Source: Eledone cirrhosa (Eukaryota). From it: a stretch of 64,000 nucleotides of DNA. The stretch lies in contig OZ024743.1 in assembly GCA_964016885.1 (NCBI GenBank), positions 51,832,001-51,896,000 of the forward strand, written 5' to 3'. The notes under the pieces are model-generated. The model was not told the origin of the DNA, ran no database searches, and worked only from the letters and a program-made list of their open reading frames with translations. Numbering within the stretch: position 1 is the stretch's first letter; each line of letters starts with the position of its first letter. Below are positions 8,733 through 61,679 of the stretch, in pieces. Made by a program: the position numbers and the translations under genes.

Positions 8733-9409
8733 TCAACAGTATTGAAACAGTGGACAAGAGTTATCTCCCTTCTATTATTTACACATGGGACTACGAAATG
8801 GTTGCTCTATGCACGCACACATACATGTACATAGCCACACGTAAGCACATGCACACATATATATCTCTATAGCTACACGTAAGCACATGCACACATATAT
8901 ATCTCTATAGCTACACGTAAGCACATGCACACATATATATCATTATACATTTATATAAAAGCCACGACCTATAAACCAAGTCAATATGGAAAAGGTTAGC
9001 TGAATTCATGTTTTTGGATGCATTTTTGTTTATAAGTGATGCAGTCTTAATAGCCTCAATTAGTATTATTATCAAAATGCTACGTGGTACTTAATTACGA
9101 CTTTCTACGTTCTGAGTTCAAATCCTGCCGATTTAGCTTTGTCTTTCATTCTTACGGGGTTGATAAAATAACTGGAGTCGATTTAATCGATTTTGCCTTT
9201 TCCCTAAAATTGTTGGCCTTGTGCTTAAATCAGAACCCATCAACTTTGGAAAGGAAGGTGAGAGTGATGAGAGAAGTACTGCCCCCCCCCCCCCCAGTAC
9301 ATTTGCTAAAAGGTGGATGACTGTGGTGAGAATGACCCATGTGAAAGTGCCTACTCTGAGCATGCGCCTGTAGGCTGGTTGATTTGAGGAAGAGACGAGT
9401 AACCTTCCC

Positions 9410-14230: not shown

Positions 14231-17200
14231 AAACATAACACCATAGACTAGGTTACTGTTCCAGAGAGAAAGAAGGGTCTATAAAGACATAAGACTATAG
14301 ACTAGGATACTGTTCCAGAGAGAAGGAAGGGTCTATAAAGACATAACACCATAGACTAGGTTACTGTTCCAGAGAAAAAGAAGGGTCTATAAAGACATAA
14401 GACTATAGACTAGGTTACTGTTCCAGAGAAAAAGAAGGGTCTATAAAGACATAAGACTATAGACTAGGTTACTGTTCCAGAGAGAAAGAAGGGTCTATAA
14501 AGACATAAGACTATAGACTAGGTTACAGTTCCAGAGAGAAGGAAGGGTCTATAAAGACATAACACTATAGACTAGGTTACTGTTCCAGAGAGAAGGAAGG
14601 GTCTATAAAGACATAACACCATAGACTAGGTTACTGTTCCAGAGAGAAGGAAGGGTCTATAAAGACATAAGACCATAGACTAGGTTACTGTTCCAGAGAG
14701 AAGGAAGGGTCTATAAAGATATAAGACTATAGACTAGGTTACTGTTCCAGAGAGAAGGAAGGGTCTATAAAGACATAAGACTATAGACTAGGGTACTGTT
14801 CCAGAGAGAAGGAAGGGTCTATAAAGACATAAGACTATAGACTAGGGTACTGTTCCAGAGAGAAGGAAGGGTCTATAAAGACATAAGACTATAGACTAGG
14901 GTACTGTTCCAGAGAGAAGGAAGGGTCTATAAAGACATAAGACTATAGACTAGGTTACTGTTCCAGAGAGAAGGAAGGGTCTATAAAGACATAACACCAT
15001 AGACTAGGTTACTGTTCCAGAGAGAAGGAAGGGTCTATAAAGATATAAGACTATAGACTAGGTTACTGTTCCAGAGAGAAGGAAGGGTCTATAAAGACAT
15101 AAGACTATAGACTAGGGTACTGTTCCAGAGAGAAGGAAGGGTCTATAAAGACATAAGACTATGGACTAGGGTACTGTTCCAAAGAGAAGGAAGGGTCTAT
15201 AAAGACATAACACCATAGACTAGGTTACTGTTCCAGAGAGAAGGAAGGGTCTATAAAGACATAAGACTATAGACTAGGTTACTGTTCCAGAGAGAAGGAA
15301 GGGTCTATAAAGACATAAGACTATAGACTAGGTTACTGTTCCAGAGAGAAGGAAGGGTCTATAAAGACATAAGACTATGGACTAGGGTACTGTTCCAGAG
15401 AGAAGGAAGGGTCTATAAAGACATAAGACTATAGACTAGGTTACTGTTCCAGAGAGAAGGAAGGGTCTATAAAGATATAAGACTATAGACTAGGTTACTG
15501 TTCCAGAGAGAAGGAAGGGTCTATAAAGACATAAGACTATAAACTAGGTTACTGTTCCAGAGAGAAGGAAGGGTCTATAAAGACATAAGACTATGGACTA
15601 GGGTACTGTTCCAAAGAGAAGGAAGGGTCTATAAAGACATAACACCATAGACTAGGTTACTGTTCCAGAGAGAAGGAAGGGTCTATAAAGACATAAGACT
15701 ATAGACTAGGTTACTGTTCCAGAGAGAAGGAAGGGTCTATAAAGACATAAGACTATAGACTAGGTTACTGTTCCAGAGAGAAGGAAGGGTCTATAAAGAC
15801 ATAACACCATAGACTAGGTTACTGTTCCAGAGAGAAGGAAGGGTCTATAAAGACATAAGACTATAGACTAGGTTACAGTTCAAGAGAGAAGGAAGGGTCT
15901 ATAAAGACATAAGACTATAGACTAGGTTACAGTTCCAGAGAGAAGGAAGGGTCTATAAAGACATAACACCATAGACTAGGTTACTGTTCCAGAGAGAAGG
16001 AAGGGTCTATAAAGACATAAGACCATAGTCTAGGTTACTGTTCCAGAGAGAAGGAAGGGTCTATAAAGACATAAGACCATAGACTAGGTTACAGTTCCAG
16101 AGAGAAAGAAGGGTCTATAAAGACATAAGACCATAGACTAGGTTACTGTTCCAGAGAGAAGGAAGGGTCTATAAAGACATAACACCATAGACTAGGTTAC
16201 TGTTCCAGAGAGAAGGAAGGGTCTATAAAGACATAACACCATAGACTAGGTTACTGTTCCAGAGAGAAGGAAGGGTCTATAAAGACATAAGACTATAGAC
16301 TAGGTTACTGTTCCAGGGAGAAGGAAGGGTCTATAAAGACATAAGACTATAGACTAGGTTACTGTTCCATAGAGAAGGAAGGGTCTATAAAGACATAAGA
16401 CCATAGACTAGGTTACTGTTCCATAGAGAAAGAAGGGTCTATCAAGACATAAGACAATAGACTAGGTTACAGTTCCAGTGAGAAGGAAGGGTCTATAAAG
16501 ACATAAGACTATAGACTAGGGTACTGTTCCAGAGAGAAGGAAGGGTCTATAAAGACATAAGACTATGGACTAGGGTACTGTTCCAGAGAGAAGGAAGGGT
16601 CTATAAAGACATAACACCATAGACTAGGTTACTGTTCCAGAGAGAAGGAAGGGTCTATAAAGACATAAGACTATAGACTAGGTTACTGTTCCAGAGAGAA
16701 GGAAGGGTCTATAAAGACATAAGACAATAGACTAGGTTACAGTTCCAGTAAGAAGGAAGGGTCTATAAAGACATAAGACTATAGACTAGGTTACTGTTCA
16801 AGAGAGAAGGAAGGGTCTATAAAGACATAAGACTATAGACTAGGTTACTGTTCCAGAGAGAAGGAAGGGTCTATAAAGACATAAGACTGTAGACTAGGTT
16901 ACTGTTCCAGAGAAAAGGAAGGGTCTATAAAGACATAAGACTATGGACTAGGTTACTGTTCCAGAGAAAAGGAAGGGTCTATAAAGACATAAGACTAAAG
17001 ACTAGGTTACTGTTCCAGAGAAAAGGAAGGGTCTATAAAGACATAAGACTATAGACTAGGGTACTGTTCCAGAGAGAAGGAAGGGTCTATAAAGACATAA
17101 GACTATAGACTAGGTTACTGTTCCATAGAGAAGGAAGGGTCTATCAAGATATAAGACTATAGACTAGGTTACTGTTCCAGAGAGAAGAAAGGGTCTATAA

Positions 17201-20200
17201 AGATATAAGACCATAGACTAGGTTACTGTTCCAGAGAGAAGGAAGGGTCTATAAAGACATAAGACTGTAGACTAGGTTACTGTTCAAGAGAGAAGGAAGG
17301 GTCTATAAAGATATAAGACTATAGACTAGGTTACAGTTGCAGAGAGAAGGAAGGGTCTATAAAGACATAAGACCATAAACTAGGTTACTGTTCCAGAGAG
17401 AAGGAAGGGTCTATAAAGACATAAGACTGTAGACTAGTTTACTGTTCAAGAGAGAAGGAAGGGTCTATAAAGATATAAGACTATAGACTAGGTTACAGTT
17501 GCAGAGAGAAGGAAGGATCTATAAAGACATAAGACTATAGACTAGGTTACAATTCCAGAGAGAAGGAAGGGTCTATCAAGATATAAGACTATAGACTAGG
17601 TTACTGTTCCAGAGAGAAGGAAGGGTCTATAAAGATATAAGACCATAGACTAGATTACTGTTCCAGAGAGAAGGAAGGGTCTATAAAGATATAAGACCAT
17701 AGACTAGGTTACAGTTCCAGAGAAAAGGGAGGGTCTATAAAGACATAAGACTATAGACTAGGTTACTCTTCCAGAGAGAAGGAAGGGTCTATAAAGACAT
17801 AAGACTATAGACTAGGTTACTGTTCCAGAGAGAAGGAAGGGTCTATAAAGACATAAGACTATAGACTAGGTTACTGTTCCAGAGAGAAGGAAGGGTCTAT
17901 AAAGACATAAGACTATAGACTAGGTTACAGTTCCAGAGAGAAGGAAGGGTCTATAAAGACATAAGACTATAGACTAGGTTACTGTTCCAGAGAGAAGGGA
18001 GGGTCTATAAAGACATAAGACTATAGACTAGGTTACTGTTCCAGAGAGAAGGAAGGGTCTATAAAGACATAAGACCATAGACTAGGTTACAGTTCCAGAG
18101 AGGAGGGAGGGTCTATAAAGACATAAGGCTATAGACTAGGTTACTGTTCCAGAGAGAAAGAAGGGTCTATAAAGACATAAGACTATAGACTAGGTTACTG
18201 TTCCAGAGAGAAGGAAGGGTCTATAAAGACATAAGACTATAGACTAGGTTACAGTTCCAGAGAGAAGGAAGGGTCTATAAAGACATAAGACTATAGACTA
18301 GGTTACTGTTCCAGAGAGAAGGGAGGGTCTATAAAGACATAAGACTATAGACTAGGTTACTGTTCCAGAGAGAAGGAAGGGTCTATAAAGACATAAGACC
18401 ATAGACTAGGTTACAGTTCCAGAGAGGAGGGAGGGTCTATAAAGACATAAGACTATAGACTAGGTTAGAGTTCAAGAGAGAAGGAAGGGTCTATAAAGAC
18501 ATAAGGCTATAGACTAGGTTACAGTTCCAGAGAGAAGGAAGGGTCTATAAAGACATAAGACTATAGACTAGGTTACTGTTCCAGAGAGAAGGGAGGGTCT
18601 ATAAAGACATAAGACTATAGACTAGGTTACTGTTCCAGAGAGAAGGAAGGGTCTATAAAGACATAAGACCATAGACTAGGTCACAGTTCCAGAGAGGAGG
18701 GAGGGTCTATAAAGACATAAGACTATAGACTAGGTTAGAGTTCAAGAGAGAAGGAAGGGTCTATAAAGACATAAGGCTATAGACTAGGTTACTGTTCCAA
18801 AGAGAAAGAAGGGTCTATAAAGACATAAGACTATAGACTAGGTTACTGTTCCAGAGAGAAGGAAGGGTCTATAAAGACATAACACCATAGACTAGGTTAC
18901 TGTTCCAGAGAGAAGGAAGGGTCTATAAAGACATAAGACCATAGACTAGGTTACTGTTCCAGAGAGAAGGAAGGGTCTATAAAGACATAAGACTATAGAC
19001 TAGGTTACAGTTCCAGAGAGAAGGAAGGGTCTATAAAGACATAAGACTATAGACTAGGTTACTGTTCCAGAGAGAAGGAAGGGTCTATAAAGACATAAGA
19101 CTATGGACTAGGGTACTGTTCCAGAGAGAAGGAAGGGTCTATAAAGACATAACACCATAGACTAGGTTACTGTTCCAGAGAGAAGGAAGGGTCTATAAAG
19201 ACATAAGACTATAGACTAGGGTACTGTTCCAGAGAGAAGGAAGGGTCTATAAAGACATAACACCACAGGCTAGGTTACTGTTCCAGAGAGAAGGAAGGGT
19301 CTATAAAGACATAACACCACAGGCTAGGTTACTGTTCCAGAGAGAAGGAAGGGTCTATAAAGACATAAGACCATAGACTAGGTTACTGTTCCAGAGAGAA
19401 GGAAGGGTCTATAAAGACATAACACCATAGACTAGGTTACTGTTCCAGAGAGAAGGAAGGGTCTATAAAGACATAACACCATAGACTAGGTTACTGTTCC
19501 AGAGAGAAGGAAGGGTCTATAAAGACATAAGACCATAGACTAGGTTACTGTTCCAGAGAGAAGGAAGGGTCTATAAAGACATAAGACTATAGACTAGGTT
19601 ACTGTTCCAGAGAGAAGTAAGGGTCTATAAAGACATAACACCATAGACTAGGTTACTGTTCCAGAGAGAAAGAAGGGTCTATAAGATATAAGACTATAAA
19701 CTAGGTTACTGTTCCAGAGAGAAGGAAGGGTCTATAAAGACATAACACCATAGACTAGGTTACTCTTTCAGAGAGAAGGAAGGGTCTATAAAGACATAAG
19801 ACTATAGACTAGGTTACAGTTCAAGAGAGAAGGAAGGGTCTATAAAGACATAAGACTATAGACTAGGTTACTGTTCCAGAGAGAAGGAAGGGTCTATAAA
19901 GACATAAGACTATAGACTAGGGTACTGTTCCAGAGAGAAGGAACGGTCTATAAAGACATAAGACTGTAGACTAGGTTACTGTTCAAGAGAGAAGGAAGGG
20001 TCTATAAAGATATAAGACTATAGACTAGGTTACAGTTCCAGTGAGAAGGAAGGGTCTATAAAGACATAAGACTATAGACTAGGTTACTGTTACAGAGAGA
20101 AGGAAGGGTCTATAAAGACATAAGACTATAGACTAGGTTAGAGTTCAAGAGAGAAGGAAGGGTCTATAAAGACATAAGACTATAGACTAGGTTACTGTTC

Positions 20201-23200
20201 CAGAGAGAAGGAACGGTCTATAAAGACATAAGACTGTAGACTAGGTTACTGTTCCAGAGAAAAGGAAGGGTCTATAAAGACATAAGACTATGGACTAGGT
20301 TACTGTTCTAGAGAAAAGGAAGGGTCTATAAAGACATAAGACTAAAGACTAGGTTACTGTTCCAGAGAAAAGGAAGGGTCTATAAAGACATAAGACTATA
20401 GACTAGGGTACTGTTCCAGAGAGAAGGAAGGGTCTATAAAGACATAAGACTATAGACTAGGTTACTCTTCCATAGAGAAGGAAGGGTCTATCAAGATATA
20501 AGACTATAGACTAGGTTATTGTTCCAGAGAGAAGGAAGGGTCTATAAAGATATAAGACCATAGACTAGGTTACTGTTCCAGAGAGAAGGAAGGGTCTATA
20601 AAGACATAAGACTATAAACTAGGTTACTGTTCCAGAGAGAAGGAAGGGTCTATAAAGACATAAGACTGTAGACTAGGTTACTGTTCAAGAGAGAAGGAAG
20701 GGTCTATAAAGATATAAGACTATAGACTAGGTTACAGTTGCAGAGAGAAGGAAGGGTCTATAAAGACATAAGACTATAGACTAGGTTACAGTTCCAGAGA
20801 GAAGGAAGGGTCTATCAAGATATAAGACTATAGACTAGGTTACTGTTCCAGAGAGAAGGAAGGGTCTATAAAGATATAAGACCATAGACTAGATTACTGT
20901 TCCAGAGAGAAGGAAGGGTCTATAAAGATATAAGACCATAGACTAGGTTACAGTTCCAGAGAGAAGGGAGGGTCTATAAAGAGATAAGACTATAGACTAG
21001 GTTACTGTTCCAGAGAGAAGGAAGGGTCTATAAAGACATAAGACTATAGACTAGGTTACTGTTCCAGAGAGAAGGAAGGGTCTATAAAGACATAAGACTA
21101 TAGACTAGGTTACTGTTCCAGAGAGAAGGAAGGGTCTATAAAGACATAAGACTATAGACTAGGTTACTGTTCCAGAGAGAAGGAAGGGTCTATAAAGACA
21201 TAAGACTATAGACTAGGTTACTGTTCCAGAGAGAAGGAAGGGTCTATAATGACATAAGACTATAGACTAGGGTACTGTTCCAGAGAGAAGGAAGTGTCTA
21301 TAAAGACATAAGACTATAGACTAGGTTACAGTTCCAGAGAGAAGGAAGGGTCTATAAAGACATAAGACTATAGACTAGGTTACAGTTCCAGAGAGAAGGA
21401 AGGGTCTATAAAGACATAAGACTATAGACTAGGTTACTCTACCAGAGAGAAGGAAGGGTCTATAAAGACATAAGACCATAGACTAGGTTACAGTTCCAGA
21501 GAGAAGGAAGGGTCTATAAAGACATAAGACCATAGACTAGGTTACAGTTCCAGAGAGAAGGAAGGGTCTATAAAGATATAAGACTATAGACTAGGTTACT
21601 ATTCCAGAGAGAAGGAAGGGTCTATAAAGACATAAGACCATAGACTAGGTTACAGTTCCAGAGAGAAGGGAGGGTCTATAAAGACATAAGACTATAGACT
21701 AGGTTACTCTTCCAGAGAGAAGGAAGGGTCTATAAAGACATAAGACTATAGACTAGGTTACAGTTCCAGTGAGAAAGAAGGGTCTATAAAGACATAAGAC
21801 TATAGACTAGGTTACAGTTCCAGTGAGAAGGAAGGGTCTATAAAGACATAAGACTATAGACTAGGTTACTGTTCCAGAGAGAAGGAAGGGTCTATAAAGA
21901 CATAAGACTATGGACTAGGGTACTGTTCCAGAGAGAAGGAAGGGTCTATAAAGACATAACACCATAGACTAGGTTACTGTTCCACAGAGAAGGAAGGGTC
22001 TATAAAGACATAACACCATAGACTAGGTTACTGTTCCAGAGAGAAGGAAGGGTCTATAAAGACATAACACCATAGACTAGGTTACTGTTCCAGAGAAAAA
22101 GAAGGGTCTATAAAGACATAAGACTATAGACTAGGTTACTGTTCCAGAGAGAAAGAAGGGTCTATAAAGACATAAGACTAAAGACTAGGGTACTGTTCCA
22201 GAGAGAAGTAAGGGTCTATAAAGACATAACACCATAGACTAGGTTACAGTTCCAGAGAGAAGGAAGGGTCTATAAAGACATAACACCATAGACTAGGTTA
22301 CTGTTCCATAGAGAAGGAAGGGTCTATAAAGACATAAGACTAAAGACTAGGTTACTGTTCCAGAGAGAAGGAAGGGTCTATAAAGACATAACACCATAGA
22401 CTAGGTTACTGTTCCAGAGAGAAGGAAGGGTCTATAAAGACATAACACCATAGACTAGGTTACTGTTCCAGAGAGAAGGAAGGGTCTATAAAGACATAAG
22501 ACTAAAGACTAGGTTACTGTTCCAGAGAGAAGGAAGGGTCTATAAAGACATAACACCATAGACTAGGTTACTGTTCCAGAGAGAAGGAAGGGTCTATAAA
22601 GACATAAGACTATAGACTAGGTTACTGTTCCAGAGAGAAGGAAGGGTCTATAAAGATATAACACCATAGACTAGGTTACTGTTCCAGAGAGAAGGAAGGG
22701 TCTATAAAGACATAAGACTATAGACTAGGGTACTGTTCCAGAGAGAAGGAAGGGTCTATAAAGACATAACACCATAGACTAGGTTACTGTTCCAGAGAGA
22801 AAGAAGGGTCTATAAAGATATAAGACTATAAACTAGGTTACTGTTCCAGAGAGAAGGAAGGGTCTATAAAGACATAAGACTATAGACTAGGTTACTCTTC
22901 CAGAGAGAAGGAAGGGTCTATAAAGACATAAGACTATAGACTAGGTTACTGTTCCAGAGAGAAGGAAGGGTCTATAAAGACATAAGACTATAGACTAGGT
23001 TACAGTTCCAGAGAGAAGGAAGGGTCTATAAAGACATAAGACAATAGACTAGGTTACTGTTCCAGAGAGAAGGAAGGGTCTATAAAGACATAAGACTATA
23101 GACTAGGTTACAGTTCAAGAGATAAGGAAGGGTCTATAAAGACATAAGACTATAGACTAGGTTACTGTTCCAGAGAGAAGGAAGGGTCTATAAAGACATA

Positions 23201-26200
23201 AGACAATAGACTAGGTTACTGTTCCAGAGAGAAGGAAGGGTCTATAAAGACATAACACCATAGACTAGGTTACTGTTCCAGAGAGAAGGAAGGGTCTATA
23301 AAGACATAAGACTATAGACTAGGTTACTGTTCCAGAGAGAAGGAAGGGTCTATAAAGACATAACACCATAGACTAGGTTACTGTTCCAGAGAGAAAGAAG
23401 GGTCTATAAAGACATAACACCATAGACTAGGTTACTGTTCCAGAGAGAAGGAAGGGTCTATAAAGATATAAGACTATAAACTAGGTTACTGTTCCAGAGA
23501 GAAGGAAGGGTCGATAAAGACATAAGACTATAGACTAGGTTACTCTTCCAGAGAGAAGGAAGGGTCTATAAAGACATAAGACTATAGACTAGGTTACAGT
23601 TCAAGAGATAAGGAAGGGTCTATAAAGACATAAGACTATAGACTAGGTTACTGTTCCAGAGAGAAGGAAGGGTCTATAAAGACATAAGACAATAGACTAG
23701 GTTACAGTTCCAGTGAGAAGGAAGGGTCTATAAAGACATAAGACTATAGACTAGGTTACTGTTACAGAGAGAAGGAAGGGTCTATAAAGACATAAGTCTA
23801 TAGACTAGGTTACAGTTCAAGAGAGAAGGAAGGGTCTATAAAGACATAAGACTATAGACTAGGTTACTGTTCCAGAGAGAAGGAACGGTCTATAAAGACA
23901 TAAGACTGTAGACTAGGTTACTGTTCCAGAGAAAAGGAAGGGTCTATAAAGACATAAGACTATGGACTAGGTTACTGTTCCAGAGAAAAGGAAGGGTCTA
24001 TAAAGATATAAGACTAAAGACTAGGTTACTGTTCCAGAGAAAAGGAAGGGTCTATAAAGACATAAGACTATAGACTAGGGTACTGTTCCAGAGAGAAGGA
24101 AGGGTCTATAAAGACATAAGACTATAGACTAGGTTACTGTTCCATAGAGAAGGAAGGGTCTATCAAGATATAAGACTATAGACTAGGTTACTGTTCCAGA
24201 GAGAAGGAAGGGTCTATAAAGATATAAGACCATAGACTAGGTTACTGTTCCAGAGAGAAGGAAGGGTCTATAAAGACATAAGACCATAAACTAGGTTACT
24301 GTTCCAGAGAGAAGGAAGGGTCTATAAAGACATAAGACTGTAGACTAGGTTACTGTTCCAGAGAGAAGGAAGGGTCTATAAAGACATAAGACTATAGACT
24401 AGGTTACTGTTCCAGAGAGAAGGAAGGGTCTATAAAGATATAAGACTATAGACTAGGTTACAGTTGCAGAGAGAAGGAAGGGTCTATAAAGACATAAGAC
24501 TATAGACTAGGTTACAGTTCCAGAGAGAAGGAAGGGTCTATCAAGATATAAGACTATAGACTAGGTTACTGTTCCAGAGAGAAGGAAGGGTCTATAAAGA
24601 TATAAGACCATAGACTAGATTACTGTTCCAGAGAGAAGGAAGGGTCTATAAAGATATAAGACCATAGACTAGGTTACAGTTCCAGAGAGAAGGGAGGGTC
24701 TATAAAGAGATAAGACTATAGACTAGGTTACTCTTCCAGAGAGAAGGAAGGGTCTATAAAGACATAAGACTATAGACTAGGTTACTGTTCCAGAGAGAAG
24801 GAAGGGTCTATAAAGACATAAGACTATAGACTAGGTTACTGTTCCAGAGAGAAGGAAGGGTCTATAAAGACATAAGACTATAGACTAGGTTACTGTTCCA
24901 GAGAGAAGGAAGGGTCTATAAAGACATAAGACTATAGACTAGGTTACAGTTCCAGAGAGAAGGAAGGGTCTATAAAGACATAAGACTATAGACTAGGTTA
25001 CTGTTCCAGAGAGAAGGGAGGGTCTATAAAGACATAAGACCATAGACTAGGTTACAGTTCCAGAGAGAAGGAAGGGTCTATAAAGACATAAGACTATAGA
25101 CTAGGGTACTGTTCCAGAGAGAAGGAAGGGTCTATAAAGACATAAGACCATAGACTAGGTTACTGTTCCAGAGAGAAGGAAGGGTCTATAAAGACATAAG
25201 ACCATAGACTAGGTTACAGTTCCAGAGAGAAGGGAGGGTCTATAAAGACATAAGACTATAGACTAGGTTACTCTTCCAGAGAGAAGGAAGGGTCTATAAA
25301 GACATAAGACCATAGACTAGGTTACAGTTCTAGAGAGAAGGAAGGGTCTATAAAGACATAAGACCATAGACTAGGTTACAGTTCCAGAGAGAAGGAAGGG
25401 TCTATAAAGATATAAGACTATAGACTAGGTTACTGTTCCAGAGAGAAGGAAGGGTCTATAAAGACATAAGACCATAGACTAGGTTACAGTTCCAGAGAGA
25501 AGGGAGGGTCTATAAAGACATAAGACTATAGACTAGGTTACTCTTCCAGAGAGAAGGAAGGGTCTATAAAGACATAAGACTATAGACTAGGTTACTGTTC
25601 CAGAGAGAAGGAACGGTCTATAAAGACATAAGACTGTAGACTAGGTTACTGTTCCAGAGAAAAGGAAGGGTCTATAAAGACATAAGACTATGGACTAGGT
25701 TACTGTTCTAGAGAAAAGGAAGGGTCTATAAAGACATAAGACTAAAGACTAGGTTACTGTTCCAGAGAAAAGGAAGGGTCTATAAAGACATAAGACTATA
25801 GACTAGGGTACTGTTCCAGAGAGAAGGAAGGGTCTATAAAGAGATAAGACTATAGACTAGGTTACTGTTCCATAGAGAAGGAAGGGTCTATCAAGATATA
25901 AGACTATAGACTAGGTTACTGTTCCAGAGAGAAGGAAGGGTCTATAAAGACATAAGACCATAGACTAGGTTACTGTTCCAGAGAGAAGGAAGGGTCTATA
26001 AAGACATAAGACCATAGACTAGGTTACTGTTCCAGAGAGAAGGAAGGGTCTATAAAGACATAAGACCATAAACTAGGTTACTGTTCCAGAGAGAAGGAAG
26101 GGTCTATAAAGACATAAGACTGTAGACTAGGTTACTGTTCAAGAGAGAAGGAAGGGTCTATAAAGACATAAGACCATAGACTAGGTTACAGTTCCAGAGA

Positions 26201-26574
26201 GAAGGAAGGGTCTATAAAGACATAAGACTATAGACTAGGTTACTGTTCCAGAGAGAAGGAAGGGTCTATAAAGATATAAGACCATAGACTAGGTTACTGT
26301 TCCAGAGAGAAGGAAGGGTCTATAAAGATATAAGACTATAGACTAGGTTACTGTTCCAGAGAGAAGGAAGGGTCTATAAAGACATAAGACTATAGACTAG
26401 GTTACTGTTCCAGAGAGAAGGAAGGGTCTATAAAGACATAAGACCATAGACTAGGTTACTGTTCCAGAGAGAAGGAAGGGTCTATAAAGACATAAGACTA
26501 TAGACTAGGTTACTGTTCCAGAGAGAAGGAAGGGTCTATAAAGACATAAGACTATAGACTAGGTTACTGTTCCA
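14231..26574. repeat. 54-bp satellite array, ~228 copies (12.3 kb)
   Basis: Unit ATAAAGACATAAGACTATAGACTAGGTTACTGTTCCAGAGAGAAGGAAGGGTCT. The consensus has a stop codon in all six frames. Confidence 0.98.
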
Positions 26575-28609: not shown

Positions 28610-31600
28610 TTTAGTTTATATTACTGTTAGTATTACTAGTACAGTAATACAATATAGTTTAGTTTATATTACTGTTAGTATTACTAGTACAGTAATACAA
28701 TACAATATAGTTTATATTACTATTAGTATTACTAGTACAGTAATACAATATAGTTTAGTTTATATTACTGTTAGTATTACTAGTACAGTAATACAATATA
28801 GTTTAGTTTATATTACTGTTAGTATTACTAGTACAGTAATACAATACAATATAGTTTATATTACTATTAGTATTACTAGTACAGTAATACAATACAATAT
28901 AGTTTATATTACTATTAGTATTACTAGTACAGTAATACAATACAATATAGTTTATATTACTATTAGTATTACTAGTACAGTAATACAATACAATATAGTT
29001 TATATTACTGTTAGTATTACTAGTACAGTAATACAATATAGTTTAGTTTATATTACTGTTAGTATTACTAGTACAGTAATACAATACAATATAGTTTATA
29101 TTACTATTAGTATTACTAGTACAGTAATACAATATAGTTTAGTTTATATTACTGTTAGTATTACTAGTACAGTAATACAATATAGTTTAGTTTATATTAC
29201 TGTTAGTATTACTAGTACAGTAATACAATACAATATAGTTTATATTACTATTAGTATTACTAGTACAGTAATACAATACAATATAGTTTATATTACTATT
29301 AGTATTACTAGTACAGTAATACAATACAATATAGTTTATATTACTATTAGTATTACTAGTACAGTAATACAATACAATATAGTTTATATTACTGTTAGTA
29401 TTACTAGTACAGTAATACAATATAGTTTAGTTTATATTACTGTTAGTATTACTAGTACAGTAATACAATATAGTTTAGTTTATATTACTGTTAGTATTAC
29501 TAGTACAGTAATACAATACAATATAGTTTATATTACTGTTAGTATTACTAGTACAGTAATACAATATAGTTTAGTTTATATTACTGTTAGTATTACTAGT
29601 ACAGTAATACAATATAGTTTAGTTTATATTACTGTTAGTATTACTAGTACAGTAATACAATATAGTTTAGTTTATATTACTATTAGTATGACTAGTACAG
29701 TAATACAATACAATATAGTTTATATTACTATTAGTATTACCAGTACAGTAATACAATACAATATAGTTTATATTACTGTTAGTATTACTAGTACAGTAAT
29801 ACAATACAATATAGTTTATATTACTGTTAGTATTACCAGTACAGTAATACAATACAATATAGTTTATATTACTATTAGTATTACCAGTACAGTAATACAA
29901 TACAATATAGTTTATATTACTGTTAGTATTACCAGTACAGTAATACAATACAATATAGTTTATATTACTGTTAGTATTACCAGTACAGTAATACAATACA
30001 ATATAGTTTATATTACTGTTAGTATTACCAGTACAGTAATACAATACAATATAGTTTATATTACTATTAGTATTACCAGTACAGTAATACAATACAATAT
30101 AGTTTATATTACTATTAGTATTACCAGTACAGTAATACAATACAATATAGTTTATATTACTATTAGTATTACCAGTACAGTAATACAATACAATATAGTT
30201 TATATTACTATTAGTATTATCAGTACAGTAATACAATACAATATAGTTTATATTACTGTTAGTATTACCAGTACAGTAATACAATACAATATAGTTTATA
30301 TTACTGTTAGTATGACTAGTACAGTAATACAATACAATATAGTTTATATTACTATTAGTATTACCAGTACAGTAATACAATACAATATAGTTTATATTAC
30401 TGTTAGTATTACTAGTACAGTAATACAATATAGTTTAGTTTATATTACTGTTAGTATGACTAGTACAGTAATACAATACAATATAGTTTATATTACTATT
30501 AGTATTACTAGTACAGTAATACAATACAATATAGTTTATATTACTGTTAGTATTACCAATACAGTAATACAATATAGTTTAGTTTATATTACTATTAGTA
30601 TTACTAGTACAGTAATACAATATAGTTTAGTTTATATTACTATTAGTATTACTAGTACAGTAATACAATACAATATAGTTTATATTACTATTAGTATTAC
30701 TAGTACAGTAATACAATACAATATAGTTTATATTACTGTTAGTATTACTAGTACAGTAATACAATATAGTTTAGTTTATATTACTATTAGTATGACTAGT
30801 ACAGTAATACAATACAATATAGTTTATATTACTATTAGTATTACCAATACAGTAATACAATATATTTTAGTTTATATTACTGTTAGTATTACCAATACAG
30901 TAACACAATATAATATAGTTTATATTACTATTAGTATTACTAATACAGTAATACAATACAATTTAGTTTATATTACTATTAGTATTACTAGTAGAGTAAT
31001 ACAATATAGTTTAGTTTATATTACTATTAGTATTACTAGTACAGTAATACAATATAGTTTATATTACTATTAGTATTACTAGTAGAGTAATACAATATAG
31101 TTTAGTTTATATTACTATTAGTATTACTAGTACAGTAATACAATATAGTTTATATTACTATTAGTATTACTAGTACAGTAATACAATACAATATAGTTTA
31201 TATTACTATTAGTATTACTAGTACAGTAATACAATACAATATAGTTTATATTACTATTAGTATTACTAGTACAGTAATACAATACAATTTAGTTTATATT
31301 ACTGTTAGTATTACCAATACAGTAATACAATACAATTTAGTTTATATTACTATTAGTATTACTAGTACAGTAATACAATACAATTTAGTTTATATTACTA
31401 TTAGTATTACTAGTACAGTAATACAATACAATTTAGTTTATATTACTATTAGTATTACTAGTACAGTAATACAATATAGTTTATATTACTATTAGTATTA
31501 CCAGTACAGTAATACAATACAATTTAGTTTATATTACTATTAGTATGACTAGTACAGTAATACAATACAATTTAGTTTGTATTACTGTTAGTATTACTAG

Positions 31601-33510
31601 TACAGTAATACAATACAATTTAGTTTATATTACTGTTAGTATTACCAATACAGTAATACAATACAATTTAGTTTATATTACCATTAGTATGACTAGTACA
31701 GTAATACAATATAATATAGTTTATATTATCATCATCATCATCATCATCGTTTAACGTCCATCTTCCACGCTTGCATGGGTTTGGACGGGAATTTTCCCAC
31801 TTGAGGCAAGATTGCTTGTCTTGCTCGTATGGGACTGTCTGGCGGATTTTCTACGGCTGGATGCGCTTCCTAACACCAACCACGTTTACAGTGTGGACTG
31901 GGAGGTTTTTACCATGTTACCTACACGGCCACATTACAACGTAGACTGTGTTTTTTTTGTCGTGACACCTACATGACCTCATTTATTTAGGACTGGATGT
32001 TGTGGTACCAACATAACTTTACATCGAAAGGGGTGGTGTGGATGGGGTGGGGGCAGTGGGACAGGGGTGTATTTTGGTTAAGAGGTGCCTACTGACTGTA
32101 GGTTTCGCTTTGTACTTAGGCAAGGCGGGTCTTCTGTATTACTGTGTAGCGCCAAAGATCTCGGTCCAGTGACATTGTCTTGGAGAGGTGTGTGTGAGGT
32201 CGGAATTTATCAAGTCGTCCCAGGTTTTTCTGGGTCTGCCTATTCCGTGGCTACCGTCTATCTTTATTGCTCTGCACTTTTTTATACAGCTATCGTCTTT
32301 CATGCGCATCACGTGACCGTACCAATGTAGTCTTCTCTCGAGTAAACAACATCTGATCCCTCTTATTCCTAATTTCTCCCTTAGTTCGTTTATGCTTTGC
32401 CGTTCACGTATATTACTATTACACATCCAGCGGAGCATGCAAGCTTCGTTCCTCTCCAGTCTGCATATATCCTCTGCACACAATGCCCATGTCTCACTGC
32501 CATGTAACATTGCTGTTCGTATGCAGGCATCATACAGCCTGCCTTTCATTTTTAGAGAGAACCCTTTAGCGACCAATAGTGGTATAAGCTCTCTGAACTT
32601 TTTCCACCCCGTTCTGACTCTAGCTACTGTACTTTCAGAGTACCCTCCACCACTGCTGATTTTGTCACCCAGGTAACGGAAGGTGTCCACTATTTCTATA
32701 GAACCATCTGTGCCATGGAATGAGCTAGTATTCTGTGGGCACTTGCTGCTACTTATTGCACCTGAGCACCGGCCACATATAAAATCTATATTCTTATTAC
32801 TATTAGTATTACTAGTACAGTAATACAATACAATTTAGTTTATATTACTGTTATTATTACCAATACAGTAATACAATACAATTTAGTTTATATTACTATT
32901 AGTATTACTAGTACAGTAATACAATACAATTTAGTTTATATTACTATTAGTATGACTAGTACAGTAATACAATACAATTTAGTTTATATTACTATTAGTA
33001 TTACTAGTACAGTAATACAATACAATTTAGTTTATATTACTATTAGTATTACTAGTACAGTAATACAATACAATTTAGTTTATATTACTATTAGTATTAC
33101 TAGTACAGTAATACAATACAATTTAGTTTATATTACTGTTAGTATTACCAATACAGTAATACAATACAATTTCGTTTGTATTACTGTTAGTATTACTAGT
33201 ACAGTAATACAATACAATTTAGTTTATATTACTGTTAGTATTACCAATACAGTAATACAATACAATTTAGTTTGTATTACTGTTAGTATTACTAGTACAG
33301 TAATACAATACAATTTAGTTTATATTACTGTTAGTATTACTAGTACAGTAATACAATACAATTTAGTTTATATTACTGTTAGTATTACTAGTACAGTAAT
33401 ACAATACAATTTAGTTTATATTACTGTTAGTATTACTAGTACAGTAATACAATACAATTTAGTTTATATTACTGTTAGTATTACTAGTACAGTAATACAA
33501 TACAATATAG
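28610..33510. repeat. 48-bp AT-rich satellite (~80 units) split by an RTE insertion
   Basis: Unit TACAATATAGTTTATATTACTATTAGTATTACTAGTACAGTAATACAA. Arrays span 28610-31728 and 32794-33510. Confidence 0.97.
31729..32793 (-). mobile_element. 5'-truncated RTE LINE (ORF C-terminus, 3' UTR, (GAT)n tail)
   Basis: FRYLGDKI...GWKKFRELIPLL...MLHGSETW...RRLHWYGHVMR...GRPRKTW. Same family as 56750-59290. Confidence 0.92.
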
Positions 33511-34207: not shown

Positions 34208-34782
34208 CAAAAGTTCTATTTAAATTGTTGGGATACAACAAGCAAATATTTTTATAACTGATATAAAGCACTCAACAAATATTTGGAGTAGATATACGAT
34301 ATTAATAAATGGAAACTATATTTATAAAACCATATTTATTTCATTATATATATTTCAAGGATACCAAGTTACATTATGGCATGCCTTCATCAGACAAAAT
34401 ATAATATATAACAGTTTTATAAATAGACATTGACGTACCCCTTTAAAGTAAACAAACCACTATCCTGATGGCCTCCAAAAGCAACGGTCAATTTTTAAAG
34501 GGGTACGTCAATGTCTATTTATAAAACTGTTATATATTATATTTTGTGTGATGAAGGCATGCCATAATGTAACTTGGTATCCTTGAAATATATATAATGA
34601 AATAAATATGGTTTTATAAATATAGTTTCCATTTATTAATATCGTATATCTACTCCAAATATTTGTTGAGTGCTTTATATCAGTTATAAAAATATTTGCT
34701 TGTTGTATCCCAACAATTTAAATAGAACTTTTGCATATACTCTGCTCCTGTATTGTTGAGCGCTTTACATTATAACTGAAAA

Positions 34783-37011
34783 ATGGAATTCTTTAAGATC
34801 TCTTCTTCTGTAAAAGACATACCTCTACCTAGGAATAAAGATTTTATTAAACAATTAATAGAAAAATCAGACTCTTTTATAAGAAGAATCAGGTGGCGTG
34901 CTTTCCACTTCGATAAATCTAATCTAAATGAAAATGTTTCAAAGCTGGATAGAATCTTCAAATCTAAAAAAAATCCACCCCCCAACAAACTACTAATGGA
35001 TTTTGAAAATGATATCGTATCTATCATCCAAAGCATCAAATTCAAAAACAACTTCAAAGGCCAAGATTACTTAAGAGATATTAAGGATAAGATTGAAAAC
35101 TTGGAGAAAACGGAGAAAATTCTAGTCAAGTCGGACAAAACTAATAATCTTTACGGAATACAAAAGGACATTTATAACGACCTTATATTGAAGGAACTAA
35201 GGAAGAAATATAAAGTAGCAAATAAGGACGAACTTGAAAAACTGAATACAGATGCCTCTTGTATAATGCATGAACTAGACATTGAAAATAAAACACAACC
35301 CTTCATGCCAAGGAAACCTAAGATCAATATGAAGGATCATAAAAGAAACTTTGAAAATGATTTACCAGTCAGATTAATTGCACCATCTAAATCTGACCTG
35401 GGCAGACTTAGCAAAAATATTCTAGACAGAATAATACAACAAATTAAGAATTTACCTAATTTATCTTACTTAAAATTATGGAAAGGGACTAGTGAGGTTA
35501 TCGATTGGTTTAAAGAAATTAAATATAACTATAATAATAAGTTTATTCAGTTGGATATTGCTAACTACTACTCATCTATCACTCCTAATCTACTGAATAA
35601 GGCACTAACTTACGCATTTAAACATACAGACCTAACTAGCAATGAAATGCACATTATATTATCAGCACGGAAAACATTAATAGAATTTAATAACCAACTC
35701 TGGACTAGGGCAGATAGAAATAATAATTTCGACATAACTATGGGATCTTCAGACTCAGCTCAGGTAACGGACCTTTTGGGCCTATTTATAATTAATTCTC
35801 TACATAGAAAAATACCAGATGTAACCGGAGGCTTATATCGTGACGACATGCTTTTACTTATAGAAAATAATAGCTGTGAACTAAATAGAAAAAGAAAACA
35901 AATTATACAATTTTTTAATTACCTTAATCTAAAAGTAGAAATAGAGAATAACCATAAAATAGTCAATTTTCTAGATGTAACACTAAATCTCAACACATGT
36001 CTTCATTATCCATTTCACAAACTAAATGAGAACTTAAATTATGTCAATTTTAACTCTAATCCCCCCAGATCCGTTAAAAATACTATAGTGAACTCTGTTC
36101 AAGAACGAATTTCAAGAATTTCATCTAATAAGAATATATTTGATGAAAAAGCGCATTATTACAACGAAGCGTTAGGTAGAGCTGGGTATAGAAATAAAAT
36201 TAAATACATCGATAATAATAATAATATACAAAATAACCAAAATAATAACAACTTTAATTATGGTAACAATTTCAACAACCATAATAGAAAATATTACAAT
36301 AACTCCGAAAGCCGAAAAAGAAATAGAACTAGGAATATATTATGGTTCGCTCCTCCTTTCTCACTAAATATTAAAACCCCTATTGCTAAACTATTCTTTA
36401 AAGCTCTTGACAAACGATTCCCTAGAACACTTAAATATTACTCAATTTTTAATAGACATACTATAAAATTAACCTACTCTTCCACCAAAAATTTAGCGCA
36501 AAATATTAATAGAATTAATAATAGAAATTTAAAACCTAACCAAAATACCAATAATAACCCAAGCAATATTCAATCGAATAACTGTAACTGTAGAAATAAA
36601 TCCAACTGTCCGTTAAATAACAACTGCTTAGCTAAAAATGTAGTTTATAATTGTAATGTTAAAACTAATTTAAATTCATTTAACTATGTCGGTTCTACCT
36701 CTACAGAATTTAAATCCCGCTTCAATAATCATAAAAATTCTTTTACAGATCCAAACAAAAAATCTTCAACTTCGCTATCTAGCCTATTATGGGACCTAAA
36801 ACGAGATAATGTTGAATATTCGCTGATTTGGAATATTATTTCAAAAGCTACTCCTTTTAATTCCTCTTCAGAAAATTGTGATCTTTGTATAGAGGAAATA
36901 TTTTTTATATTAAAGACCAAAAATTCCCTTAATTTAAGGAATAATTTATTCAGTTGCTGCAGACATGGATTGAACTCAACGTTTAAATATAAATATAAAT
37001 TTAAAATGTAG
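34783..37011 (+). CDS. PLE polyprotein: reverse transcriptase plus C-terminal GIY-YIG endonuclease (742 aa, uninterrupted)
   Basis: SDKT (DKG-like), LPVRLIAP, QLDIANYY (motif A), ITMGS (B'), YRDD (C), NFLDVTL (E), Cys-rich linker CNCRNKSNCPLNNNC, VVY...YVG, FKSRFNNH, CDLCIEE, LN. Confidence 0.95.
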   Translation: MEFFKISSSVKDIPLPRNKDFIKQLIEKSDSFIRRIRWRAFHFDKSNLNENVSKLDRIFKSKKNPPPNKLLMDFENDIVSIIQSIKFKNNFKGQDYLRDIKDKIENLEKTEKILVKSDKTNNLYGIQKDIYNDLILKELRKKYKVANKDELEKLNTDASCIMHELDIENKTQPFMPRKPKINMKDHKRNFENDLPVRLIAPSKSDLGRLSKNILDRIIQQIKNLPNLSYLKLWKGTSEVIDWFKEIKYNYNNKFIQLDIANYYSSITPNLLNKALTYAFKHTDLTSNEMHIILSARKTLIEFNNQLWTRADRNNNFDITMGSSDSAQVTDLLGLFIINSLHRKIPDVTGGLYRDDMLLLIENNSCELNRKRKQIIQFFNYLNLKVEIENNHKIVNFLDVTLNLNTCLHYPFHKLNENLNYVNFNSNPPRSVKNTIVNSVQERISRISSNKNIFDEKAHYYNEALGRAGYRNKIKYIDNNNNIQNNQNNNNFNYGNNFNNHNRKYYNNSESRKRNRTRNILWFAPPFSLNIKTPIAKLFFKALDKRFPRTLKYYSIFNRHTIKLTYSSTKNLAQNINRINNRNLKPNQNTNNNPSNIQSNNCNCRNKSNCPLNNNCLAKNVVYNCNVKTNLNSFNYVGSTSTEFKSRFNNHKNSFTDPNKKSSTSLSSLLWDLKRDNVEYSLIWNIISKATPFNSSSENCDLCIEEIFFILKTKNSLNLRNNLFSCCRHGLNSTFKYKYKFKM

Positions 37012-42487: not shown

Positions 42488-42579
42488 TTTAATATGTAAT
42501 AAATATGTATATGATGCAACATTGATTCTTTGCTCCTTATATGTTGATACTATATATTACATACAAATACATACATCCA

Positions 42580-43210
42580 TATATATATATGAATAAAAAT
42601 AGACCGAGAAAAGTCCGTCATCAGTAGTCTGCTGATTCTCATTGGTCGGACTTTTCTCGGTCTATTTTTATTCATATGTTCATATTCGCAACAACGCAGC
42701 ACGCCATTTTTCATTCACATATATTTTCCCTTCGCTGTGGTTCGTATTTTTTCTGTTACCTTACTGCTTTCCTCTTTCTCTCTCTCCCACTTACCTCTTA
42801 CTTTCCTCCATCCCCACTGCTGGTCGCACACTCAGCTAGCCCCTTCCTCAAACTTTCACTCACTCACTCTCTGCTACTCCTCTCTCACTTCCTCCCGTCT
42901 GACCTGCATTAATTCTTTCCTCTCTCAATTTTCTTCTCGTCATTTGATTTGTCGGACTTATGCCCACAAGATTCATTGACTTGTCTCTTTTTTCCCCTCT
43001 TTACGTTGCGCTACTACCATGTTGTTTGTTCACTTTCCTCTGTCCCGATAACTTAATTTAGTTATCGCTCGCACTGATTTTAGGTATCTAGTCTTTAATG
43101 CAAAGAAATACCAATGAGAATCAGCAGACTACTAATGACGGACTTTTCTCGGTCTATTTTTATTCATATGTCCATATTCGCAACAACGCAGCACGCCATT
43201 TTTCATTCAT
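42580..43210 (+). mobile_element. Non-autonomous ~0.6-kb element with PLE architecture (inverted partial repeat plus direct terminal repeat) in (TA)n
   Basis: 42587-42646 is the reverse complement of 43110-43169, and 42647-42717 directly repeats 43139-43209. No credible ORF. Confidence 0.85.
43042..43143 (+). ncRNA. Candidate scrambled/pseudoknotted hammerhead-like RNA motif, copy 1
   Basis: GGTAT-C-TAGTCT...GAA-ATACC...AGACTA-CTAATGA; the inverted copy at 42618-42624 reads CTGATGA. Covaries with 61301-61402. Confidence 0.6.
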
Positions 43211-43220
43211 ATATATATAT

Positions 43221-55612: not shown

Positions 55613-56749
55613 AATGTCATTACATCCCACGGGGGAAAATGTCAGATAACTTTTCAACAGACCTTATATGTGTATGTTGACATGAGTATCAATGTGTGTC
55701 TGTTTGCAAACATGTGTATGTATACATATGTTTTCATGAGTGTGTGTGTGTACATATATTTGCATCATGGCCTGTTTATGAGATCAAATCCAGCTGAGGT
55801 CAATTTTGTCATCCTTTCAGGTTCAATAAAATATGAACTAGTCAAGTGCTGGGATTGATATAATTGATTTTCCCCTCTACTCATATTGCTGGCTTTGTGC
55901 CTATGCTAGAAACAATTATTAAGATGATATTTGGAACATAACTTCACAAAGGTTCTTACATAAAATTATGATGGAAGGTTTTTAGATAAATATAAACACT
56001 TTAATCTATTTATCATATTTTTAATGAAAGACACTTCCTATGATTTTCAAATAATGACTAACTTTCTTATTATTAAGCTGGTGTTTGGAACATAACTTAA
56101 CAAAATGTCTCACATGAAATGATGATAGAAAATTTTTAGATAAATATAAACATTTAAAATTAAACAGTTTTATATCACAAAACTATGGTGGAGTTGAAGC
56201 AGTTTGGTATGAAAAAGGTTAAAGCTACTTAGTGATAGATCCATAATGGGCCAAAAGGGGTCCCAAATAGCCACTAGGAGCTACAGGCATCCACAAGAAA
56301 CCACAAGTAGCTATAAATTGCCAAAAGATACTACTTTAAGCCACAAGGGGTCAAAAGGGGAACAAGGAGCATAAATAGCCACAAGGAACTATAAGTGGCT
56401 TCCAGAATCAACAATGGACCATTAGGATCCACAAGGGCCTATAAGGAGACACAAAGAGAGGCATACTAATGATATATGAAGATAGAAAATGCCATAAATC
56501 GTTAAAAGTGCAACGATCAGATGTTTGGATTAAGTGTGATGACATCAATATGGTACCAAGATTCTGAGATTTGAATATGATGCTATCTTTAGGTACACTG
56601 CTAGACAGTGTGTAATGTGTGTTGTGCACTAGTATGTGTGATGATGTTTGTTTTCACATGTGTGTGTATATATATATATATATCATCATCGTTTAACATC
56701 CATTTTCCACGCTAGTATGGGTAGGATGGTATATATATAAATATATATA

Positions 56750-59282
56750 GAGTCGTACAAGGTAGAGGAACAGTGGGAATTCCTGAAAGCAAACCTGCTG
56801 ATGGCGGCAGACGAAATCTGTGGCTGGAGCAGGCCTGTAGGCAGGAGGAGAGTAACATGGTGGTGGAACAGTAAGGTGGAGGGGTCAATCAAGGCCAAAA
56901 AGCAGGCTTGGAAAGCATGGCGGGATAGGGGAAGTAGAGAAGACTATCAAATGGCCAGGAGGGAAGCTAGGAGACAAGTGTACTTCGCAAGAAGGGAAGC
57001 AGAGGAAAGAAAGTTCAAGCATGTTCTACAACGCGAGGACCAAAAACGTGAGGTGTTCAGGATTGCTAGGCAATGTGTCAAGGAAAACCGTGATATTGTC
57101 GGGGAGAAGTGTGTACTTAACGATGATGGCGTACTTGCCATCACCGACGCTGATAAGAAGGTAGCTTGGAAGTGTCACTACGAAAGGCTACTAAATGAGG
57201 AGAATAAATGGGAGAAAGACAGTCTCCCCCACATCGACCCAATAGAGGGACTAGCAGTGTTAGTCGAAGGTAGTATAATAAGTAAGGCAATCAAAGATAT
57301 GAAGACGGGTAAGGCGGCTGGGCCTTCGGAAATAGTTGCTGAGATGCTGAAAGCCTCTGGTACGGTGGGACACACCATGGTCACCCGGATAGTAAACCAA
57401 GTCATACAGAATGGGGTTGTTCCGAAGGACTGGCGTAGCAGCATCATCATTAACTGTTACAAGGGTAAAGGAGACGCCCTAGATAGGAGTAACTATAGAG
57501 GCATTAAATTAATCGACCAGGTCATGAAGGTCACGGAAAAAGTAATAGCGCAACTAATGAGAGAGAGAATTGATCTAGATGAAATGCAGTTCGGGTTTGT
57601 GTCAGGCAAAAGTACCACAGACGCTCTTTTCATTGTACGACAACTACAGGAGAAGTACCTAGCTAAAAGTAAACCCCTATACTTAGCTTTTGTCGACTTG
57701 GAGAAAGCCTTCAACAGAGTCCCCCGTTCCATTATCTGGTGGGCTCTTAGAAAACTAGGTGTTGACGAATGGCTTGTGAGAGCTATACAAGCCATGTATA
57801 AAGAAACAGTCAGCAAGGTTAGAATTAACAACGAATATAGTGAAGAGTTTAGCGTAAAAGTTGGTGTCCATCAGGGCTCTGTTCTTAGCCTCCTACTATT
57901 TATTATTGCCCTTCAGGCTATAACAGAGGAGCTCAAGACCGGCTGCCCATGGGAACTCTTAGACGCAGATGATCTAACGCTCATAGCTGAATCAATGGCC
58001 GAGCTAGAGAAGAAATTCCAAACATGGAAGCACGGCCTAGAATCAAAAGGCCTTAAAATTAACCTGGCTAAGACTAAAGTTCTAGTTTGTAGGAAAGAAA
58101 ATAAGGCGCCGGTCCCTCCCGGGAAATGGCCATGCTCAGTGTGTAGGAAAGGCGTAGGTAGAAACTCCATTTTATGTCCCAAATGCAAAGTATGGGTGCA
58201 TAAAAGATGTAGTGGGATCACAGGTAAGCTAACTAAGAACACAGATTTTACATGTGGCCGGTGCTCTGGTGCAATAAGTAGCAGCAAGTGCCCACAAAAT
58301 ACTAGCTCTTTCAATTGCGCAGAGGGTTCTATAGAAATAGTGGACAGCTTCCGTTACCTGGGTGACAAAATCAGCAGTGGGGGAGGGTGCTCTGAAAGTA
58401 CAGTAGCTAGAGTCAGAACTGGATGGAAAAAGTTCAGAGAGCTTATACCACTATTAGATGGATGTGTAATAGTAATATACGTGAACGGCAAAGCATAAAC
58501 GAACTAAGGAAAACATTAGAAATAAGAGGGATCAGATGTTGTTTACTCGAGAGAAGGCTACGTTGGTAAGGTCACGTGATGCGCATGAAAGACGACAGCT
58601 GTATAACAAAGTGCAGGGCAATAAAAATAGATGGTAGCCACAGAGTAGGCAGAACCCAGAAAAACCTGGGACGAGCTGATAAATTCCGACCTCACACACT
58701 TACACCTCTCCAAGACAGTGTCACTGGACCGAGACCTTTGGCGGTACTCAGTAACAGAGAAGACCCGCCTTACCTAAATACAAAGTAAAACCTACTATAG
58801 TCAGTAGGCATCTCTAACAAAATACACCCCCGTCCCACCCACCCCCACCCCATCCACACCGCCCCTTTCAATGCAAAGTTATGTTGGTGCCACAACATCC
58901 AGGCCGAAACAAATGAGATCGTGTAGGTGTCATGACAAAAAAACACACAGTCCACGCTATAATGTGGCCGTGTAGGCAACACGGTAAAAACCTCCCAGTC
59001 CCACACTGTAAATGTGGTTGGTGTTAGGAAGGGCATCCAGCTGTAGAAAACACGCCAGACAGTCCACGCTGTAATGTGGCCGTGTAGGCAACACGGTAAT
59101 AACCTCCCAGCCCCACACTGTAAATGTGGTTGGTGTTAGGAAGGGCATCCAGCTGTAGAAAACCCGCCAGACAGTCCTATGCGAGCAAGACAACCACTCT
59201 TGCCTCAAGTGGGAAAACCCCCGTCCAAACCCATGCAAGCGTGGAACATGGACGTTAAACGATGATGATGATGATGATGATG

Positions 59283-61218: not shown

Positions 61219-61300
61219 TACATATATATGTCTATATACATACACACACACACACATATATATATACATTTACTGTCTCGCTCGTTCCCCCTATTTACGT

Positions 61301-61402
61301 ATCCCAACGACTTTCTTTAGCCGTTGCTCGCACCAACTAGAGGTATATGGTCTCTAAAGCGATGAAATACCAATGAAGGCTGGAAGATCACTGATGAAGG
61401 AC
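61301..61402 (+). ncRNA. Candidate scrambled/pseudoknotted hammerhead-like RNA motif, copy 2 (solo element between TA tracts)
   Basis: GGTAT-A-TGGTCT...GCGAT-GAA-ATACC-AATGA...AGATCA-CTGATGA-AGGAC. Confidence 0.6.
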
Positions 61403-61679
61403 TAAATTTATTCATATATATATATATATATATACATACACACACACATATATACATATATATAAAGTGGTTTGATCACTGAGACACACACGCACACATT
61501 ATATATATATATATATATATATAAATATCTAAGTCAAGTGGACAATCAGTGATCAAGGAGATCAATACATACTTAGTAGATTGACTGTATAAACTGTAGT
61601 GTGTATGTGCGGGTATGTATATGCATGTGTGGGGATTATTTCCATGTTTGTGTATGTACATCTGTGTATGCATGTTATT

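Follow-up and report, generated by a model that had tools for sequence, protein, structure and literature searches.

A putative self-cleaving permuted hammerhead in a probably Naiad-derived non-coding Penelope-like unit of Eledone cirrhosa

Penelope-like elements of the window

The window, meaning the whole stretch of 64,000 nucleotides of the Eledone cirrhosa genome that was analyzed (contig OZ024743.1, positions 51,832,001 to 51,896,000), contains two related elements at 42.6-43.2 kb and 61 kb. Satellites occupy 14233-26574 and 28612-33510, with a 54-bp repeat in 229 copies and 48-bp repeats in 65 and 15 copies, 94-96% alike. A 585-aa open frame at 56741-58498 (+) matches RVT_1 (E 5e-28) and a PHD finger and is presumably an RTE-type LINE, and a 743-aa stop-to-stop frame at 34780-37011 (+) has no Pfam match. 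The parts of the two elements are as follows.

42579..42646, minus strand: inverted 5'-truncated piece of the sister unit, with block C only
42716..43215, plus strand: full-length unit of a sister subfamily, its core mutated (CTAATGA at 43132-43138), preceded by a tail piece at 42647-42723
61269..61416, plus strand: 5'-truncated copy of a non-autonomous Penelope-like unit (subfamily of ~520 bp) in a TA/CA microsatellite, without the optional ~45-nt 3' tail

The element at 61269-61416 has 148 bases and lies between TA/CA microsatellites. An earlier note had described it as a stand-alone element of about 150 bp at 61262..61416; the 3' limit holds, the start lies at 61269, and the element is instead a 5'-truncated piece of a ~520-bp unit that exists in thousands of copies. 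The intact core words that the same note had reported are all present, in the order UA (61346-61347), GAAA (61364-61367) and CTGATGA (61391-61397), corresponding to blocks S, G and C of a hammerhead ribozyme. A pattern for these blocks in the order S-G-C matches twice in the window, in the 61-kb copy and at 43083-43138, where 0.01 matches are expected, and none of 100 shuffles reached two matches. The 61-kb copy has the only intact core found in the window, since a G>A change in block C of the 43-kb core gives CTAATGA. The inverted piece at 42.6 kb has neither the GAAA block nor the cleavage block, and it is the usual inverted arm of a Penelope-like insertion.

Over 443 nt of the unit the two elements are 67% alike, and the 43-kb element is thus a member of a sister subfamily and not of a second family as had been thought. 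The upstream and terminal motifs said to be shared by the two elements were all three found, and they are common to both because sister subfamilies share descent; they are part of ordinary homology along the unit. Much of the divergence between the two elements is compensatory change in stems and not in the loops, where the earlier note had placed it. The optional 3' tail of the unit (43161-43215 in the window; 1650-1700 of locus L003) contains a conserved GCAAC-N-A-C/U-GCA, a potential small hairpin whose computed energy is weak.

Genome-wide, a pattern for the strand upstream of the core alone has 15,765 matches, to be read as at least that many copies, against 2 in the control. The three core blocks in S-G-C order have 26,750 matches, a count that includes overlapping duplicates, against 811 for the reversed control. 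In a similarity search with the window copy, 40 of 2,806 candidates were scored, and the non-self matches listed are 95-99% alike. The fetched copies run upstream into the ~520-bp unit and are arranged in tandem and inverted; the periods across related subfamilies are 445-637 bp (about 450-640 bp). The unit is non-coding, its longest ORF being 51 aa. Among 39 3' ends in the window's subfamily, 20 lack the tail, ending at the same point as the window copy, and 19 have it. Tandem copies, 5'-truncated inverted arms, a tail that may be absent and insertion into TA repeats have all been described for Penelope-like insertions, and each of these traits is found here, together with short non-coding tandem units having one predicted hammerhead per unit, as in non-LTR retrozymes.

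Block order and covarying fold of the candidate ribozyme

In the window copy, the predicted fold is laid out as follows, all on the plus strand.

61301..61304: upstream strand of helix IIa, pairing with 61399-61402; the outer pair is broken here
61305..61326: hairpin H1, with a 7-bp stem and an 8-nt loop; absent from an older family
61328..61331: upstream strand of helix IIb, pairing with 61359-61362
61333..61345: 5' strand of stem III (IIIb, 61333-61338; non-bulged side of the k-turn, 61339-61341; IIIa, 61342-61345)
61346..61347: block S, U16.1-A17; cleavage predicted at 61347/61348 by analogy with type SGC
61348..61353: 5' strand of stem I, pairing with 61385-61390
61354..61358: conserved UUAA linker, mean column identity 0.975
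61359..61367: block G (3' strand of IIb, 61359-61362; position 11.1, 61363; GAAA, 61364-61367)
61368..61383: 3' strand of stem III (IIIa, 61368-61371; k-turn bulge and G-A pairs, 61372-61377; IIIb, 61378-61383)
61385..61402: block C (3' strand of stem I, 61385-61390; CUGAUGA, 61391-61397; position 10.1, 61398; 3' strand of IIa, 61399-61402)

The whole fold takes up 102 nt (61301-61402), and the core with stems I and IIIa takes up 56 of the 148 nt, where the earlier note had the element consist almost entirely of the motif. The block order, the conserved core and the covarying stems I and III are those of type SGC hammerheads, and by analogy with these RNAs the core is likely to cut between 61347 and 61348, which agrees with the RNA 5' end that the earlier note expected at 61348.

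The fold was assessed in 21 copies chosen by hand from 109 as representatives of subfamilies, leaving aside near-duplicates, rearranged or truncated copies, false matches and the older family. Under a model of 33 pairs, 91.8% of the 691 cells can pair, against 26-49% in controls with slid partners, and 20 of the 33 pairs are changed on both sides, with at least one such pair in each of the six helices I, IIIa, IIIb, H1, IIa and IIb. Stem I is 94% paired with five of six pairs doubly changed. The figures for stem I and for the core are inflated: the 21 rows share ancestry, and both of these parts had served as criteria in finding them. IIIa is 95% and IIIb 91% paired, and IIa has just one doubly changed pair. 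RNAalifold recovers H1, IIIa and IIIb unaided. Position 17 is A or C across the aligned copies.

A core-blind sample was drawn by picking 30 loci by the upstream strand without the core, of which two that were interrupted were dropped. In the remaining 28, UH is kept in 27, GAAA in 25, CUGANGA in 25 (23 by script and two alignment-gap artefacts that were intact on viewing) and all three in 21. Stem I has at least five of six pairs in all 28 copies, in four main sequence versions.

One could take the motif for a sequence that arose by chance, was multiplied by a single repeat family and is shared through descent alone. Homology of the two window elements along the whole unit and uniform decay within the family would suit such an origin; among the best 47 matches inside the window's subfamily, the core has 5 changes in 601 positions and the rest 77 in 5,880 (p = 0.44). 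We find this explanation scarcely credible in view of the 20 doubly changed pairs over six helices and because the layout recurs in the family that has no H1 and, by eye, in Naiads whose sequences are very different. The earlier note would have taken uniform divergence across core and loops as a refutation, a test that is ill-posed: divergence is uniform within the family, as expected after insertion because inserted copies are dead, and between subfamilies there is compensatory change instead. Selection shows between subfamilies and not among dead copies. Its action on RNA structure, which the note had deduced from two copies, is thus upheld by compensatory change across many subfamilies and not by the two-copy comparison.

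Single-sequence folding gives no special signal (z = +1.40 and -0.04), a method that is uninformative here because the fold is pseudoknotted. Rfam detects nothing in the window at the gathering score, and no Rfam hammerhead lies over the motif at E<=10 in three loci. The circular block order of the canonical hammerhead types I-III and a matching Rfam hit are both absent.

The unusual part of the model is stem II. A stem II formed directly by blocks C and G would be only 37% paired in the 21 copies, with its three inner pairs broken in 17-20 of the 21 rows, and the two arms are non-complementary in all tested registers (23-37% paired). The arm after CUGAUGA (IIa) and the arm before GAAA (IIb) each pair instead with the upstream strand that flanks H1. 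Positions 10.1 and 11.1 form a pair, A-U, U-A or G-U, in 14 of the 21 rows. The direct stem II with G10.1-C11.1 that characterizes type SGC is missing. In the predicted fold, stem II keeps no more than the 10.1-11.1 pair and the upstream strand makes a helical junction beneath the core; the junction probably sits below that one closing pair. It is also conceivable that blocks from two tandem units or molecules build a conventional circular-order hammerhead with an ordinary stem II, since the units are often tandem, with periods of 445-637, and dimeric cleavage has been reported for Penelope-like element (PLE) hammerheads. We regard such an assembly as very improbable: the C- and G-block arms are 23-37% paired whichever molecule they come from, and both pair with the upstream strand.

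The stretch that separates IIIa from IIIb has the sequence of a k-turn, with a 3-nt bulge, a 1b-1n G-A pair, a 2b-2n A-G or A-U pair and two flanking helices. The G-A positions never vary, while at 2n 15 of the 21 copies have G and 6 have U; the A-U form at 2b-2n folds in Kt-23 according to the part of PMC2790904 consulted. In its bulge, its G-A and A-G (or A-U) pairs and its two helices it matches the standard k-turn described there, and the difference is that the k-turn here is predicted, from sequence, to lie inside a hammerhead stem III. The long stem III, bent by the k-turn, would bring block C back to stem I. Because box C/D snoRNAs have a k-turn of similar kind, a snoRNA-like RNA spread as a SINE comes to mind, and there are weak matches to snR66 (E 4.1-7.4). 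These score 23-24 bits against a cut-off of 65 bits, and a snoRNA leaves UH, GAAA, stem I and the pseudoknots unexplained; this is the least probable of the explanations considered here.

Three other pairings were dropped. The AUGA that follows stem IIIa could pair with the terminal UUCAU, and this looks compensatory in three copies; other copies do not keep the pairing, and the bases concerned agree with the k-turn. The two others would have joined the 3' tail to IIb and GGAC to stem I.

The window copy departs from the family majority at 61301, 61338 and 61354. The 61301 G>A change breaks the outer IIa pair, the change at 61338 turns C-G into U-G within IIIb, and the 61354 T>C change falls in the UUAA linker. 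Nested subsets of its helices have energies of -5.4 to -6.0 kcal/mol, compared with -7.3 to -10.8 in a majority-type copy. With three private changes and weaker helices, it is a poor choice as the best copy for testing, for which it had been put forward; it adds little beyond the family.

Probable Naiad ancestry and a candidate helper

Naiads are PLEs reported to be without a canonical hammerhead, and some of their 3' ends are labeled 'HHR_core' or 'HHR_half_core' (Craig et al. 2021, PMC8557442, in the parts consulted). In the consensus sequences of that report, the 3' ends of Naiad_Obim and Naiad_Ovul, read by eye, have the S-G-C order with IIa, H1, IIb and the k-turn, although the label given there to Naiad_Ovul is only 'HHR_half_core'. 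Four further Naiad records, again by eye, have S-G-C and the upstream strand, and Naiad_Esco has S-G-C with stems I and III. In these records C11.1 mostly pairs upstream and 10.1-11.1 is open, by eye. Short sequence motifs, too, are seen by eye to be common to the unit and Naiad 3' ends. The unit and the Naiads of PMC8557442, as far as its passages were available, are alike in (TA)n targets, tandem and inverted 5'-truncated copies, an optional 3' tail and the S-G-C fold seen by eye; they differ in that the unit has no ORF and that those passages propose no fold. The earlier suggestion of a Penelope-like or Naiad link therefore fits both the insertion traits and these 3' ends, the latter by eye.

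A 19-nt motif from octopus Naiads retrieved an older family in four of five matches. This family (L157-L176, L111-L113 and L115) has 182 genome matches against 0 in the control. It lacks H1, has CUGAGGA and mostly G10.1-C11.1, and keeps the k-turn and the UUAA linker; 10.1 is G in 15 of 20 copies, and the opposite C was fixed by the search pattern. Its upstream part resembles the window's unit (65%, E 4e-9).

The N-terminal GIY-YIG, CxC, DKA and RT of the Naiad ORF are absent from the unit. Naiad RT patterns in the genome gave 0, 1 and 22 matches, and the Naiad-like RT remnants (L236-L244, L246, L248 and L137) are ~60-85% alike, with many stops, and are interrupted by other repeats. Extension of flanks in search of an autonomous Naiad or other PLE partner, as had been proposed, encountered no unit joined to a Naiad ORF (11 remnants examined and 159 loci searched), and the remnants are decayed. 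From its likeness to Naiad 3' ends as read by eye, we infer that the unit originated from a Naiad 3' end.

Young units presuppose an enzyme that still works. In four of 142 distinct copies the 5' end abuts, with no microsatellite in between, on the arm of a C-rich PLE that is inverted and 5'-truncated; the 5'-junction classifier is noisy (63 of 142 unclassified), and these fusions were checked by hand. The head-to-head fusions represent three events, since two of the four copies (L281 and L282) are one duplicated segment. In two of them (L249, junction near 8770; L250, minus strand) the PLE arm extends 2.3-2.7 kb to a TA repeat, with no PLE beyond the unit, and in the third (L281) ~100 nt of another element with a canonical-order hammerhead stand at the junction. 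The fused PLE family has copies 98-99% alike. Its RT precedes a cysteine linker and GIY-YIG, and its 3' end bears a hammerhead in canonical order; the designation Neptune-type comes from motifs and not from a tree. None of 29 other, non-seed loci of this family carries the unit.

The fusions mimic the usual inverted arm, which suggests that both RNAs were primed by a single enzyme. Junctions of like appearance would also arise if two elements had inserted independently and a deletion had then joined them. On this evidence the young Neptune-type element may now be the helper of the units, a weak inference. Long-frame GIY-YIG loci were rejected as the autonomous partner, these being PLEs with a C-terminal endonuclease and with motif copies only nearby. 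Hammerheads at the 3' ends of C-terminal-endonuclease PLEs, where shown, are in canonical order. Long open frames of such PLEs, in L116, L117 and L118 (938, 844 and 1096 aa from stop to stop), are other candidate helpers.

Predicted cleavage, proposed mechanism and relation to known hammerheads

Taken together, the locus and its family probably represent a putative self-cleaving permuted hammerhead within a Naiad-derived non-coding Penelope-like unit. A read-through transcript of tandem units would be cut once per unit, the monomer would probably be circularized as in non-LTR retrozymes, and a Penelope-like RT/endonuclease would copy the monomer into (TA)n.

An alternative that we consider unlikely is that the fold is real and cleavage was lost, and that the RNA is retained because the Penelope-like RT or an L7Ae-family protein binds it. 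The want of a regular stem II and of a fixed G10.1-C11.1 pair would fit, as would the small number of copies that begin at the predicted cut. These were 32 of the first 100 among 479 TA-joined truncations near the site, by eye, or ~1% of copies when extrapolated, and TATA microhomology confounds the figure, which fits a re-ligated template and an uncut one alike. The catalytic positions, however, are fixed across subfamilies, N7 and H17 vary as in active hammerheads, and circular templates would likewise give few 5' ends at the cut. A self-cleaving RNA is the preferred reading.

In vitro cleavage has been demonstrated for type SGC RNAs (Eckert et al. 2023, PMC10085705). HRIMA-1 and its variants share with the unit the block order, the core residues, the crossing stems I and III and the short linker after stem I. 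In the sections of that report consulted, the published descriptors demand G10.1, C11.1 and stem II, and the RNAs have a direct stem II with G10.1-C11.1 and come from metatranscriptomes, none from the genomes of known organisms. In contrast, stem II here opens into a junction with the upstream strand, a k-turn lies in stem III and there are >15,000 genomic copies. The candidate would thus be SGC-like in its working, yet it departs from type SGC in stem II. We found no published description of the four-strand layout or of SGC RNAs in animal genomes in a search that took in few subscription papers, and the layout appears new to print as far as searched.

Non-LTR retrozymes (PMC7229834; bioRxiv 10.64898/2026.07.22.740005, both in part) are likewise short tandem non-coding units with one hammerhead each and a link to PLE pLTRs. 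According to the parts consulted, they have type I hammerheads, units of 150-450 bp and circular RNA that has been shown, whereas the ribozyme here is permuted, the units are of 445-637 bp and the evidence is from DNA.

A bolder and rather doubtful extension is that Naiads always had a hammerhead, of four strands and non-circularly permuted, with a stem II junction made through the upstream strand and a stem III kinked by a host L7Ae-family protein, and that non-autonomous retrozymes outlived the Naiads through a Neptune-type reverse transcriptase to reach >15,000 copies. If the candidate ribozyme itself is borne out, non-circularly permuted hammerheads would move from environmental RNA to animal genomes at high copy number, and the hammerhead core would be able to work without a regular stem II. 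Such a ribozyme would also explain why descriptor searches missed Naiad hammerheads, and it would remove the main argument that PLEs can do without them.

Among the Naiad 3' ends in the part of PMC8557442 consulted, two (one just before Naiad_Hcon), show by eye the blocks in the order C-S-G, and stems I, II and III pair well. This is type CSG, known in 2023 from only two reported sequences.
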